From the NCBI GenBank assembly GCA_026016225.1, contig CP061210.1, forward strand, positions 593,131 to 657,130: DNA of 64,000 nucleotides. Direction: 5' to 3'. Made by a program: the position numbers and the translations under genes. The stretch's first letter is position 1, and each line of letters opens with the position of its first letter. The stretch is from Candidatus Nealsonbacteria bacterium (GTDB lineage: Bacteria; Patescibacteriota; Minisyncoccia; Minisyncoccales; JANBVM01). The notes under the pieces were generated by a model. The model worked only from the letters and a program-made list of their open reading frames with translations, ran no database searches and was not told the DNA's origin. Below are positions 48,983 through 52,332 of this stretch, one piece after another.

Positions 48983-49057
48983 CGGGCTGTAGCGCAGTTT
49001 AGTTAGCGCGCTCGCATGGGGCGCGAGAGGCCGCCGGGGCAGAGCCGGCCAGCCCGA
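48983..49057 (+). tRNA. tRNA-Pro (anticodon GGG) with non-canonical T- and D-loops
   Basis: CGGGCTG TA GCGC AGTTTAGTTA GCGC G CTCGC ATGGGGC GCGAG AGGCC GCCGG GGCAGAG CCGGC CAGCCCG A. All four stems are perfect and G37 is present. The T-loop is GGCAGAG rather than TTCRANY, and the D-loop lacks GG. Confidence 0.6.
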
Positions 49058-49088
49058 CACTTTTATTTAGAGACGCTAAAAAATGAAC

Positions 49089-49171
49089 TACCCCGCCCTA
49101 AAGGGACGGGGTATCCCTTCCGCCAACTGGCGGAGGGGCAAGTTCTTTTGCCCCGCCTGGGCGGGGCAAAA
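49089..49171. repeat. cluster of three GC-rich hairpins between tRNA-Pro and the nuclease-like gene
   Basis: TACCCCGCCC-taaa-GGGaCGGGGTA at 49089-49113. CCTTCCGCC-aact-GGCGGAGGG at 49115-49138. TTTTGCCCCGC-ctgg-GCGGGGCAAAA at 49146-49171. None is followed by a T-run. Confidence 0.8.
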
Positions 49172-49179
49172 TAAAATCT

Positions 49180-50037
49180 ATGAGTAAAGTTATTGTTAAG
49201 TGCTCTTATTGTAAAACGGAATTCCAGCGAGAATTGGGAAGATACAACGAAGCAATAAAGAAAAGTTGGAATCAGTATTGCTCTCAAGAATGTCAAAATA
49301 AGTCTAAGATTAAAAGAGTAGAAAAAATTTGCGGTAATCCAAAATGTAACAAGAGGGTGTCTCGTAAATTCCACGAATTTAAAAAATCAAAATCAGGCAG
49401 CATCTTTTGTTCTCTTTCTTGTGCCGTGTCGGTCAACAATTCTAAATTTCCAAAAAGACAGGCAATAAAAAGAAAATGTCTCTATTGTGAAAAAGATTTT
49501 GTCGGCGGAAAGAAATATTGCTCGATAAAATGCAAAAATAAAGCCCAAATTATAAGCAAAGAAGAAATCTGTGATAAAATTAAAGGGTTCTATAAAAAAT
49601 ATAGAAGGATTCCTGTCAAAAAAGAGTTCTCTCATTATAATGCTGCTCGAGATCGGTTCGGTTCTTGGAATAAAGCAATAGAATCAGCAGGCTTCGTACC
49701 TAATCCAGTAGTATTTGCAAGAAAGCACAAAGCAGAAGATGGACATGTGTGCGATTCTCTATCGGAAAAAATTGTTGATGATTGGCTTTCTAAAAACAAC
49801 TTAAAGCACAAAATTAATGTTGCCTATCCAGGGAATCCCCGTCTAACATGTGATTTTTTAGTAGGTAACTATTTTATAGAATTTTTCGGAATTGGAAAAG
49901 AACACGTACGATACACAGAACTAATGAAAGAAAAAAGGCGATTGGCTCAACAGTATAACCTTAATATGGTAGAACTAAAGCCTGAACACATTTTTCCTAA
50001 AAATAAGTTAGACGCTGTATTAAATTTTCTTCTATAA
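49180..50037 (+). CDS. multi-Zn-ribbon protein with homing-endonuclease-associated repeat and C-terminal PD-(D/E)XK/Vsr-like nuclease-like domain
   Basis: Three CxxC...(F/Y)CSxxC modules are followed by FYKKYRRIPVKKEFSHYNAARDRFGSWNKAIESAGF, an HNH-associated-repeat-like pattern. The C-terminus is CDSLSEKIVDDWL...TCDFLVGNYFIEFFG, like small DUF559/Vsr-type nuclease folds. The family assignment is pattern-based only. Confidence 0.45.
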   Translation: MSKVIVKCSYCKTEFQRELGRYNEAIKKSWNQYCSQECQNKSKIKRVEKICGNPKCNKRVSRKFHEFKKSKSGSIFCSLSCAVSVNNSKFPKRQAIKRKCLYCEKDFVGGKKYCSIKCKNKAQIISKEEICDKIKGFYKKYRRIPVKKEFSHYNAARDRFGSWNKAIESAGFVPNPVVFARKHKAEDGHVCDSLSEKIVDDWLSKNNLKHKINVAYPGNPRLTCDFLVGNYFIEFFGIGKEHVRYTELMKEKRRLAQQYNLNMVELKPEHIFPKNKLDAVLNFLL

Positions 50038-50289: not shown

Positions 50290-50341
50290 AGAGGTGTAAG
50301 AATAAGATAGTTCTTTGAAAAAATATGGGGAAGGGAATTTG

Positions 50342-50388
50342 CATCACCCGAATTGTTCATCAAATTCTGGTGGCCAGCTCGGGTGATG
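50342..50388 (+). promoter_or_regulatory. leader hairpin that can sequester the Shine-Dalgarno of the downstream ORF
   Basis: CATCACCCGA (50342-50351) and TCGGGTGATG (50379-50388) form a perfect 10-bp stem, with a nested CTGG-tgg-CCAG hairpin inside. The 3' arm contains GGTGA 7 nt before the ATG at 50394. Confidence 0.45.
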
Positions 50389-50393
50389 TAAAA

Positions 50394-50903
50394 ATGAAAA
50401 TAATAGATAATAGCAAAGCAATAATATTGGGGGAGAAGGTAAGGTTTAAGAAAAACGCAACATTAATTGATGAAAAAATAAAGGTTAACCGGGATTATAT
50501 AGTAAAACAAGTGGAAACACAAACACTTAACTTTAGAAAACGAGGAATTAGAAAGATTAATCAAATTATAGAACTACAAGAGCTACCAGGGCGCTGGTTT
50601 TCAGTAGATTGGCTTGATTTAGTCGAGTCAGAGGAAATCCCAATTCGTGGAATAAACCTAGTTTCATTCGAAGAATATAAGAAGCTTGGAGGAAAGTTGG
50701 CTAGGGAGGAACACAAACGGCTTAAGCGAATAAGCTCTCCACAAGAGGAATATCGAGAAGCATTCAGAGTGGCTGGTGATGTAGGGTGTGGATATCCTCC
50801 TCATCCAGAAATGGAGTTACTTGCAAGAGTATGCATGTTGAAGTCTAACCTTTCATCGTTAGATAAAATGTGCGAAATGCTCCTTCTGCAAGGTAAAAAA
50901 TAA
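50394..50903 (+). CDS. hypothetical protein (ORFan)
   Basis: The track ORF 50325..50903 has an alternative ATG at 50394 (MKIIDNSK...) with a GGTGA SD, whereas the ATG at 50325 has none. I recognise no family. Confidence 0.4.
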   Translation: MKIIDNSKAIILGEKVRFKKNATLIDEKIKVNRDYIVKQVETQTLNFRKRGIRKINQIIELQELPGRWFSVDWLDLVESEEIPIRGINLVSFEEYKKLGGKLAREEHKRLKRISSPQEEYREAFRVAGDVGCGYPPHPEMELLARVCMLKSNLSSLDKMCEMLLLQGKK

Positions 50904-51046
50904 TCCTCTCCCTTTCCCCCTCTCTTTTCGAGCCCATAAAGAATTGTGGGTTGGAAAAAGAAGTTAATTATCTAACAAAATTTATTATAGAAAGAGAGAA
51001 AATCAATGCTCGCTTTTTTTTATTTATTGAAAACACACCCTAAAAC

Positions 51047-51207
51047 CAAAAAACACCGCAATGCGGCGTTTTTTAGAGCCCTGCTTTACTCTGGAAAAGC
51101 TAATCTGGAAAAATCCAAGTGGGTGTCTAAGATGTGTCCCACGGGACACATTCATTTCGAACTCCCTCTAAAAGCTTATACCAGATTTAACCAGAAAAAG
51201 CAGGGCT
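51047..51207 (-). ncRNA. candidate structured sRNA of about 160 nt (closing stem / large internal bubble / apical hairpin; 6S-like architecture), class unknown
   Basis: It has its own promoter (51213-51241). Helices are 51197-51207/51077-51087 (11 bp perfect), 51191-51194/51091-51094, and 51181-51187/51102-51108. The apical hairpin is GUGUCCC..GGGACAC at 51134-51149. The terminator ACGCCGC-auu-GCGGUGU plus U6 lies at 51047-51069. Confidence 0.45.
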
Positions 51208-51212
51208 ATTTT

Positions 51213-51241
51213 ATTTTATGCTTCCTGCACCCCTTTGTCAA
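51213..51241 (-). promoter_or_regulatory. sigma70-like promoter driving the sRNA candidate
   Basis: Minus strand reads TTGACA (51236-51241), a 17-nt spacer, then TAAAAT (51213-51218). Confidence 0.55.
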
Positions 51242-51267
51242 CTTTCCTAACTTTTTAGCTTCTTAAC

Positions 51268-52332
51268 TTAAATATTGAAAACATCAACCAATTGTTTTAT
51301 CAAAGAAACAACTACCGGTGGAGGTAATAAACTATAAGAAGAGACACCTTCATCATCTGTCACTACCCATGGTTTCTCTTTTATTTTTACTTTTTTTATC
51401 TTTTTATCCCATTCAAAAATATATTCTGGGGTTATTTCATAATCATCAACAAAATTTGCAGCTTCCTTAACAGGTACCGAATTTCTCAATAAAACCTTTG
51501 GAATTCCATAGAGAGAAAAAGATTGTCTAATTAATTTATCATCCATAATTAATCTTTTTTTTATAGGTGCAATCCCCAACTCGTCTCCTTCTTTTAAAAT
51601 CATTTTAGCTTTTTTACACCTGGGATTGTCGCAAATTAAATAAAATTCATTGCTTTTTTCATCAAATCCAGCTTCTGAGGTTGGAAGTAGCTTTAAGTTT
51701 CTCGAAGTCTGGCAAACCGGACAAATCCTTCTCCATCTAATTCTTTCATCAATTACTTTTTCAGGAACATCAATTAAAATAAAAACGTCCGGGTCATCTC
51801 GATGACCAACCAAGTCTCTGAAAAACAAAGAAAAATCTATCTGGTCTAAATCCCTTGGAAAACCATCCACAAAAAGAGTTTTCTTTTCCATTCTTTCCAT
51901 CTCTCTTTTAACCAAAGTTAAAATCAATTCTGTAGGTAAAAGAACTTTTGTGCTCCTGTTTTCTAAAAGGGATATTATTTCTTTAATTGAAATCCTGCCC
52001 CGATAATTTCTTTTTAAAAAATCAAAGAATCCTTCTCTCTTTTTTTTATCTGTTAATTCTCCGTCTATTTTTCTAATCATATCTCCAATGGAAAAGTGCT
52101 CTATCTTTTCAGGCCCAATAATTTCTGCAAACATCTTTGAATAAGTTCCCTTACCTGAGTTTTTCTTACCTAACAAATAAGCAACAAAAGTATTTTCTTT
52201 CAAATACTCTTTTAATTTTTCTATCTCTTTTCCTGCTTTGGCTTTAAAATATTTTTTTCTCTCCCTGAGGTTTATTAAATTAAATTTTTTTTCAAAGCCT
52301 TTAATTTTTGTTTTAAAAAGAGGAAATTCCAT
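51268..52332 (-). CDS. divergent adenylate-kinase-family protein with extended Zn-lid and an extra C-terminal domain of about 100 aa
   Basis: P-loop GKKNSGKGT, DGFPRD, and lid RWRRICPVCQ...CDNPRCKK. It is a second AK-like gene besides adk at 32154. Confidence 0.5.
   Translation of the reverse strand: MEFPLFKTKIKGFEKKFNLINLRERKKYFKAKAGKEIEKLKEYLKENTFVAYLLGKKNSGKGTYSKMFAEIIGPEKIEHFSIGDMIRKIDGELTDKKKREGFFDFLKRNYRGRISIKEIISLLENRSTKVLLPTELILTLVKREMERMEKKTLFVDGFPRDLDQIDFSLFFRDLVGHRDDPDVFILIDVPEKVIDERIRWRRICPVCQTSRNLKLLPTSEAGFDEKSNEFYLICDNPRCKKAKMILKEGDELGIAPIKKRLIMDDKLIRQSFSLYGIPKVLLRNSVPVKEAANFVDDYEITPEYIFEWDKKIKKVKIKEKPWVVTDDEGVSSYSLLPPPVVVSLIKQLVDVFNI

Follow-up and report, generated by a model that had tools for sequence, protein, structure and literature searches.

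A conserved small RNA gene of Candidatus Nealsonbacteria, probably encoding a compact variant of 6S RNA

In a 64,000-nucleotide (nt) stretch of contig CP061210.1 of Candidatus Nealsonbacteria (Parcubacteria, Candidate Phyla Radiation, CPR), the whole of which is here called the window, a first-pass annotation had proposed a 6S-like structured small RNA at 51047-51241, leaving its class unassigned. Our results demonstrate that a structured small RNA gene, equipped with a promoter and a terminator of its own, is present and conserved at this site. The proposal is further supported by the covariation of its helices and by repeated matches of its relatives to the 6S RNA family (RF00013), and the locus is probably a compact 6S RNA (SsrS-type) gene. 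All elements of the RNA gene are read on the minus strand, and they are listed here together with the convergent gene that lies downstream of it.

51241-51213, minus strand: sigma-70-type promoter, with a -35 element TTGACA (51241-51236), a 17-nt spacer and a -10 element TAAAAT (51218-51213)
51207-51197 / 51087-51077, minus strand: P1, the closing stem, in which AGCCCUGCUUU pairs with AAAGCAGGGCU
51196-51191 / 51094-51089, minus strand: P2, in which UUCUGG pairs with CCAGAG
51187-51181 / 51108-51102, minus strand: P3, in which AAUCUGG pairs with CCAGAUU, flanking the central bubble on the closing-stem side
51180-51167, minus strand: 5' strand of the central bubble, 14 nt, UAUAAGCUUUUAGA (family consensus GACAAAAGUUCUUUUA), unpaired in the consensus structure
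51166-51160 / 51127-51121, minus strand: P4, in which GGGAGUU pairs with GACACCC; GGG and A are near-invariant and CCC is invariant
51151-51132, minus strand: P5, the apical hairpin, AUGUGUCC-CGUG-GGACACAU, reached from P4 through an asymmetric loop
51120-51109, minus strand: 3' strand of the central bubble, 12 nt, ACUUGGAUUUUU, whose AC completes an invariant CACCCAC
51074-51048, minus strand: intrinsic terminator, with an A-tract (51074-51069), a stem, an AUU loop and U6 (51053-51048)
50325-50903, plus strand: convergent gene of 192 amino acids (aa), downstream of the RNA

The promoter, already recognized in the first-pass annotation as near-consensus, matches 11 of 12 consensus positions, is one of only two equally good sites in 2.5 kb, and has a -35 element that begins 27 nt past the stop codon of the adenylate-kinase-like gene (52332-51268, minus strand). 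The hairpin sets in 7 nt past the -10 element and, as this is the usual distance from -10 to +1, transcription is predicted to start at A51207 or G51206, the first base pair of P1. In 65 of the 72 homologues described below, 9 or more of the 12 consensus positions are matched by a promoter at a fixed distance, whose -10 element ends 2-3 nt ahead of the start of the family model; the predicted start therefore falls on the first P1 pair in these sequences as well.

At the other end, the terminator (ACGCCGC-AUU-GCGGUGU plus U6, 51069-51048) is present as originally described; its A-tract begins two nt past P1, and CGCCGC (51068-51063) pairs with GCGGUG (51059-51054). A rule-based terminator scan did not report the site 51074-51048; the hairpin and U-run are evident in the sequence and are included in the minimum-free-energy fold. 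A run of at least 5 T within 70 nt downstream was found in 58 of the 72 homologues, usually after a separate hairpin preceded by an A-run, and directly after P1 in four of them. The predicted transcript would thus extend from about 51207 to about 51048, roughly 160 nt, 131 nt of which form the 6S fold.

The terminator (51048-51074) is symmetric (A6, hairpin, U6) and can be read as an intrinsic terminator on both strands, and this arrangement of A-run, hairpin and U-run is common to most homologues. Transcription arriving from the convergent gene could end there as well, which would protect the RNA gene from being transcribed in antisense. The protein encoded by the convergent gene gave no Pfam match at E ≤ 0.01, and in many relatives an antisense tRNA gene takes its place downstream of the RNA. 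With only convergent genes or antisense tRNA genes following it, the RNA has no cis target on that side and is not the leader of a downstream gene.

The core of the transcript (51207-51077, 131 nt) forms a rod-shaped hairpin. RNAfold gave a minimum free energy of -66.2 kcal/mol, for a fold that includes the terminator hairpin, compared to -38.6 ± 3.5 kcal/mol for dinucleotide-shuffled sequences (z = -7.8; none of 200 shuffles was as good), which bears out the folding check suggested in the first-pass annotation. The 11-bp perfect helix of P1 and its inward continuation by CUGG/CCAG and AAUCUGG/CCAGAUU, as read there by eye, are all present and covarying, and the apical hairpin is likewise confirmed at 51151-51132 with its CGUG loop. 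One part of that description had to be revised: a conserved, covarying helix, P4, had been missed. It interrupts both of the 'largely unpairable' strands, given there as about 31 and 25 nt, and so reduces the central bubble to 14 and 12 nt.

The gene upstream of the RNA (51268-52332, minus strand) encodes an atypical, very highly conserved 354-aa protein of the adenylate kinase family, matched by the Pfam families ADK and AAA_17. It has a P-loop (GKKNSGKGT) and a zinc lid (CPxC…CxxxxC), and both of its termini carry long extensions. More than 4000 relatives of this protein were found at E ≤ 1e-10, named as proteins of Candidatus Nealsonbacteria, Parcubacteria or Patescibacteria, and an alignment of 25 kinase relatives was used to fetch 80 loci from species-representative genomes. 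Homologues of the RNA were searched for in the window and these 80 reference-genome loci (81 sources), as well as by a pattern scan of metagenomes. With the window RNA as query, nhmmer matched about 60 of the 80 loci, each just downstream of the kinase gene; the resulting material comprises a MAFFT alignment of 60 sequences (A2), a covariance model with the five helices (R1), and an alignment of 72 sequences (A4). The covariance model matches 72 of the 81 sources (the window and 71 of the 80 loci) with 48-145 bits, among Nealsonbacteria and related Parcubacteria, and all 72 RNAs lie directly downstream of the adenylate-kinase-like gene on the same strand. In the 64-kb window the RNA is single-copy (model match at 51075-51210, 121 bits). 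The nine loci without the RNA gave nothing above noise when searched again with filters off, and some of their contigs end right after the kinase gene.

Alignment A2 shows invariant GGGAG and CACCCAC segments and a conserved CCCUGC/GCAGGG closing stem, while the sequence of the apical hairpin varies freely yet stays paired. The columns G45, G46, G47 and A48 are invariant or near-invariant, C88-C92 are invariant, and [CU]UGGA is invariant or nearly so. Within the family the core measures 129-150 nt (median 140), with a bubble of 14-16 and 12-14 nt between P3 and P4, and the internal loop between P4 and P5 (CUGAAAUGA versus CUUA) is strongly conserved in most members.

All five helices are under selection for pairing. 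In A4, which was fitted to the model's own structure, 93.1% of cells form standard pairs, compared to 76.5% in shuffled alignments, and 33 of the 35 pairs show changes on both sides. The covariation score of this alignment was 0.551, against 0.236 for shuffled alignments (none of 500 shuffles reached it), and fell to 0.08-0.14 when the 3' partners were slid by 1-3 columns. By helix, double changes were observed in all pairs of P1 (8/8, 94% of cells paired), P2 (6/6, 91%) and P3 (6/6, 84%), and in 4 pairs of P4 (98% of cells paired); in P5, all 9 pairs were doubly changed, with up to 51 of the 72 sequences changed on both sides at a single pair, and the tetraloop is variable but stable (CGUG, UGCG, CUUG, UUCG and others). 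Independently, RNAalifold applied to a plain MAFFT alignment recovered P1, P4 and P5 with compensatory changes.

A variant of the arrangement was observed in a subclade of nine loci (L014:3640-3739, L034:1462-1565, L025:2185-2292, L078:1398-1503, L038:3590-3683, L008:3724-3819, L076:3668-3760, L044:3575-3654 and L077:3556-3633), in which the promoter is displaced upstream by about 75-90 nt and the RNA begins with a conserved 5' leader (…GGCRKUGCYYCAUUGGAAGUUAU…AUAAUUUCUAACGG). According to RNAalifold, the leader pairs with the 5' strand of P1, either as GCCCC/GGGGC or as GCUUC/GGAGC (C-G to U-A, split 5:4 among the nine), so that its pairing would be in competition with the closing stem. A second copy of GGCUCUG/AGCCCUG stands at the start of the leader in L025 and L078. 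The leader may belong to a precursor from which it is removed by processing, or it may serve folding or regulation.

Assignment to a known class was addressed with the 4227 families of Rfam 15, in which RF00013 has a model length of 187 and a gathering score of 46.4 bits. At gathering thresholds, only three tRNAs were found in the window. Four relatives of the window RNA have 6S as their best Rfam family, each over the full length of the model (1-187), on the right strand and at the coordinates of the RNA, and all four are also matched by the family covariance model. They include two of the kinase-linked loci, L001 (28.7 bits, E = 0.063 over 65 kb and 4227 families, or 1.9e-4 when searched alone) and L062 (27 bits, E = 0.16 over 65 kb and all families), and two metagenome sequences, L103 (36.8 bits, E = 6.5e-4 over 57 kb, or 3e-6 locally) and L193 (21.3 bits); a third local E-value against RF00013 was 0.018. 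Other Rfam matches around the RNA at E ≤ 10 (rimP, STnc540, RsmY and others) were rejected as terminator-driven noise.

The correspondence between the two families extends to individual nucleotides. The Rfam 6S consensus reads ccCUgc … CCgAaaauuuuuauaauaGGGagccc … gggcaCCCACCUggaAca … gcGGgg, and its most conserved letters, those in capitals, are the invariant letters of the compact RNA family. P1 matches ccCUgc at the 5' end and gcGGgg at the 3' end, and the GGGAG / CACCCAC[CU]UGGA segments flanking the bubble match the consensus GGGagccc…caCCCACCUgga; the 5' strand of P4 follows 'GGGagcc', including the single unpaired A after three G-C pairs. The 5' bubble strand aligns with the A/U-rich, 16-nt 5' bubble of RF00013, and the 3' bubble strand aligns with its 'CCCACCUggaAca', CCCACCUGGA opening the strand in both. 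In the alignment of L001 with RF00013, P3 takes the place that the 'downstream duplex' (P2) has in known 6S RNAs.

Sequences bridging the compact family and canonical 6S RNA came from metagenome contigs, which were scanned for the pattern GGGAG N40-70 CACCCACCTGGA. The family model matches 3 of the 120 loci so obtained (L148, L103 and L193), and a search of 20 pattern-scan loci against Rfam gave a 6S match in L103 only. L148 (83 bits with the family model) has the kinase gene upstream, with 69% identity. L103 (32.5 bits, E = 9e-5 over 464 kb) holds a 175-nt relative (L103:980-1154, minus strand) with its own TTGACA promoter, on a metagenome contig of 39% G+C, flanked by tRNA genes on one side and by a fragment of a peptidase M50 gene on the other; its core (GGGAGUCUG … GACACCCACCUGGAUUU) is as in the compact family and its closing stem is longer. 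L193 reaches 29.3 bits with the family model, and 6S is its best family at the same coordinates. Of these, L103 is the best bridge to canonical 6S RNA, and it suggests that other CPR lineages keep longer versions.

Like 6S RNAs of RF00013 such as E. coli ssrS and B. subtilis 6S-1, the compact RNA is built of a closing arm, a central bubble and an apical arm, with bubble strands of similar length and composition, a conserved GGG-A-helix / CACCCAC[CU]UGGA bordering the bubble towards the apex, and CCCUGC/GCAGGG in the closing stem, and it is encoded by a gene of its own behind a strong sigma-70-type promoter. It differs in that both arms are about 10 nt per strand shorter, most family members are unmatched by RF00013, and the transcript seems to start exactly at P1 and to end in a terminator hairpin of its own (in a few members, the U-run comes directly after P1 instead). 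A precedent for lineage-specific 6S-like families is 6S-Flavo (RF01685), which is kept apart from RF00013; as is proposed for the compact RNA, it is a phylum-specific 6S-type RNA outside the reach of the general 6S model, although it belongs to a different lineage and RF01685 gave no match to the compact RNA at E ≤ 10. The short 6S RNA of Aquifex aeolicus has about 160 nt. This natural RNA and a truncated B. subtilis 6S-1 resemble the compact RNA in having a bubble with short arms, and still bind the holoenzyme, template product RNA and are released (PMC8876501; PMC8414754); the truncated 6S-1 is an engineered construct and the Aquifex RNA is longer, whereas the compact form is the natural, conserved state of a clade. 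Ms1 RNA is also a 6S-like rod that binds RNA polymerase, as is predicted for the compact RNA, but it binds the core enzyme instead of the holoenzyme, is much longer and is found only in Actinobacteria (PMC9130861), and no sequence relation to the compact RNA was seen.

In characterized 6S RNAs, the rod mimics an open promoter, with a '-10-like' 3' bubble strand and a '-35-like' region in the apical arm; product RNA is begun in the 5' bubble strand and read into the closing-side helix, and the resulting unwinding leads to refolding and release (PMC8876501). Reduced to its bubble and two short arms, B. subtilis 6S-1 still goes through this cycle in vitro, with an approximately 10-fold lower affinity (PMC8876501), which makes a natural 6S RNA of about 135 nt plausible. 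By analogy, we infer polymerase binding, product-RNA synthesis and a physiological role for the compact RNA. The rod would be seated in the DNA-binding channel of the primary-sigma holoenzyme as an open-promoter mimic competing with real promoters, its arms being just long enough for the polymerase footprint: P4 and P5 would act as the upstream arm, P3 to P1 as the downstream duplex, and the 3' bubble strand (51120-51109) as the '-10-like' strand. Once nucleotides are abundant, a short product RNA would be copied by the polymerase from the 5' bubble strand and then from the 5' strands of P3 and P2, starting near the conserved Y of GG-G/U-A-Y-AA, which is U51180 in the window. The predicted product RNA would read 5'-ACCAGAUUUAACCAG…, and its reads would carry the plus-strand sequence ACCAGATTTAACCAG…, complementary to 51180-51194. 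This copying would unzip P3 and thereby release the polymerase.

Several observations weigh against the assignment to 6S RNA. The Rfam search proposed in the first-pass annotation gave a divided outcome, as L001 and L062 returned sub-threshold 6S matches but the window RNA itself returned none at E ≤ 10. No family scored above its gathering score for the RNA, all 6S scores lying at 21-37 bits versus the required 46.4, and nine of the eleven homologous loci searched at E ≤ 5 had no 6S match. The reciprocal search of the E. coli ssrS locus with the family model gave no match, although this search is uninformative because the E. coli 6S RNA lacks the consensus CACCCACCUGGA. The core, at 129-150 nt, lies below the 160-200 nt of 6S RNAs (PMC8414754; about 200 nt according to PMC8876501), and about 160 nt is reached only with the terminator hairpin. 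As the window copy is unmatched, ssrS is not found by the family model and the core is short, the link to 6S RNA is transitive, through the family model, and it is sub-threshold; given that the gathering score was not reached, the RNA is filed as a 6S variant and not as a plain member of RF00013. Furthermore, the rearrangement helices known from E. coli and B. subtilis 6S RNA have no covariation support in the compact RNA: a hairpin (UGGA…UCCA) that would form in the 3' bubble strand and re-use the 3' strand of P3, at the expense of that helix, is paired in 69% of cells with no covariation beyond shuffles, and a bubble-collapse helix of the U-rich 5' bubble with the 3' strand of P3 is paired in 71%, not above shuffles. 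Finally, the close association with the kinase-like gene might point to a different role.

The sub-threshold scores, the unmatched window copy, the negative reciprocal search and the small size also sustain the view that this is a structured RNA of other function, for instance a partner of another protein, that resembles 6S RNA merely as an irregular rod with an internal loop; the conserved loop between P4 and P5, of which we know no counterpart in other 6S RNAs, also speaks in its favour. Against this stand the facts that, among all 4227 families, 6S is the repeated best match of four sequences, full-length and with exact boundaries, and that the match rests on idiosyncratic nucleotides (GGG, the unpaired A and CCCACCUGGA by the bubble) and not on a generic hairpin shape, so that we consider a merely 6S-like shape unlikely. 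Two more novel readings retain the relationship to 6S RNA, and even taken jointly they seem rather improbable: a natural minimal 6S RNA with an apical arm too short for the '-35-like' contact, in which case GGGAG/CACCCAC and the bubble would be the least that polymerase binding requires, perhaps as a match to the reduced and unusual transcription apparatus of CPR bacteria, or a 6S-derived RNA with a different partner, which is consistent with the kinase linkage and the conserved CUGAAAUGA loop. The linkage also bears on whether the RNA is a cis or gene-linked element of the kinase-like gene, be it a 3' untranslated region, a kinase-regulating or kinase-bound RNA, or a protective or terminator module, given that it occurs in 72 of the 81 sources and again in L148, and that in the window no terminator is found between the kinase stop codon (51268) and the RNA promoter. 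Yet in 65 of 72 homologues a near-consensus promoter belonging to the RNA itself lies at a constant distance from it, the related L103 RNA adjoins a peptidase M50 gene fragment and not a kinase gene, and a 130-nt rod with five covarying helices far exceeds what a terminator needs; moreover, the loci represent one fairly narrow clade (kinase 62-78% identical), in which the linkage may be inherited gene order, as in the precedent of ssrS-ygfA (fau) in E. coli. We therefore regard an element belonging to the kinase-like gene as very unlikely.

A small-protein gene or a type I toxin-antitoxin locus could in principle be read from two open reading frames (ORFs) that the window holds here, of 43 aa (51024-51155, minus strand) and 86 aa (51006-51266, plus strand). 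Of the 72 homologues, 21 have no AUG at the start of the 43-aa ORF, and elsewhere the frame spans 3-76 aa (median 21) in differing reading frames; an ATG-initiated ORF of at least 40 aa occurs in only 12-13 of the 72 homologues, on either strand, and the substitutions keep base pairs, not codons. The coding reading is thus effectively refuted, and the earlier view that no credible protein gene fits here holds, as no ORF is conserved on either strand. The first-pass annotation had further named a lack of conservation, a preserved 43-aa ORF or a confident hit to a different RNA family as observations that would speak against its proposal; the RNA is conserved in relatives, the ORF is not preserved, and no confident match to another family was obtained.

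Other identities were considered and rejected. A bacterial small signal recognition particle (SRP) RNA (4.5S; RF00169) gave no Rfam match at any threshold, and the apical loop is variable and not GNRA. For a retron non-coding RNA (msr-msd), no reverse transcriptase was found nearby, the upstream gene being kinase-like and the downstream convergent gene being without a Pfam match. 5S rRNA gave no Rfam match and has a different topology, and in a kink-turn or C/D-box reading of CUGA…UGAU, assessed by eye, the non-bulged strand is without the required GA.

Two further features were observed elsewhere in the window, on the plus strand. A tRNA-like cloverleaf (48984-49060, -35.6 kcal/mol) has an acceptor GGGCUG, a D arm, an anticodon stem-loop CUCGC-AUGGGGC-GCGAG and a T arm GCCGG-GGCAGAG-CCGGC with a non-canonical T-loop, and is without CCA; it was called by neither ARAGORN nor the Rfam tRNA model, and could be a pseudo-tRNA or an unusual tRNA-Pro(GGG). 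It is followed, in an otherwise 33% G+C genome, by three or four G+C-rich hairpins (49085-49170; CCCCGCCC…GGGACGGGG, CUUCCGCC…GGCGGAGG, GGGGCAAG…GCCCCGCC…GGCGGGGC), for which Rfam returned nothing at E ≤ 1; a folding energy of -60.3 kcal/mol was calculated for 49062-49182. The hairpins lie just ahead of a gene (49180-50037) for a 285-aa cysteine-rich protein with a homing-endonuclease-associated repeat (PF18780), and together with it they may constitute a mobile insertion adjoining the tRNA-like element.

According to PMC8414754, nearly all bacteria possess a 6S RNA. In the full-text library searched, we found no paper pairing '6S RNA' with Candidate Phyla Radiation, Saccharibacteria or Parcubacteria, and the sole co-mention with Patescibacteria concerns mitochondrial SRP. 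Taken together, our results indicate that the RNA is most likely a compact 6S variant of Parcubacteria that has been missed by standard annotation and by the curated Rfam threshold, and not a new kind of system. The alignment and model reported here would allow its annotation across Nealsonbacteria and related Parcubacteria. As a naturally minimized 6S RNA (about 130-140 nt), it would complement the in-vitro truncations of B. subtilis 6S-1 and point to the nucleotides that matter most, and its presence in metatranscriptomes could mark the growth state of uncultivated ultra-small bacteria. If the assignment is true, organisms about whose regulation hardly anything is known would gain a global regulator of transcription.

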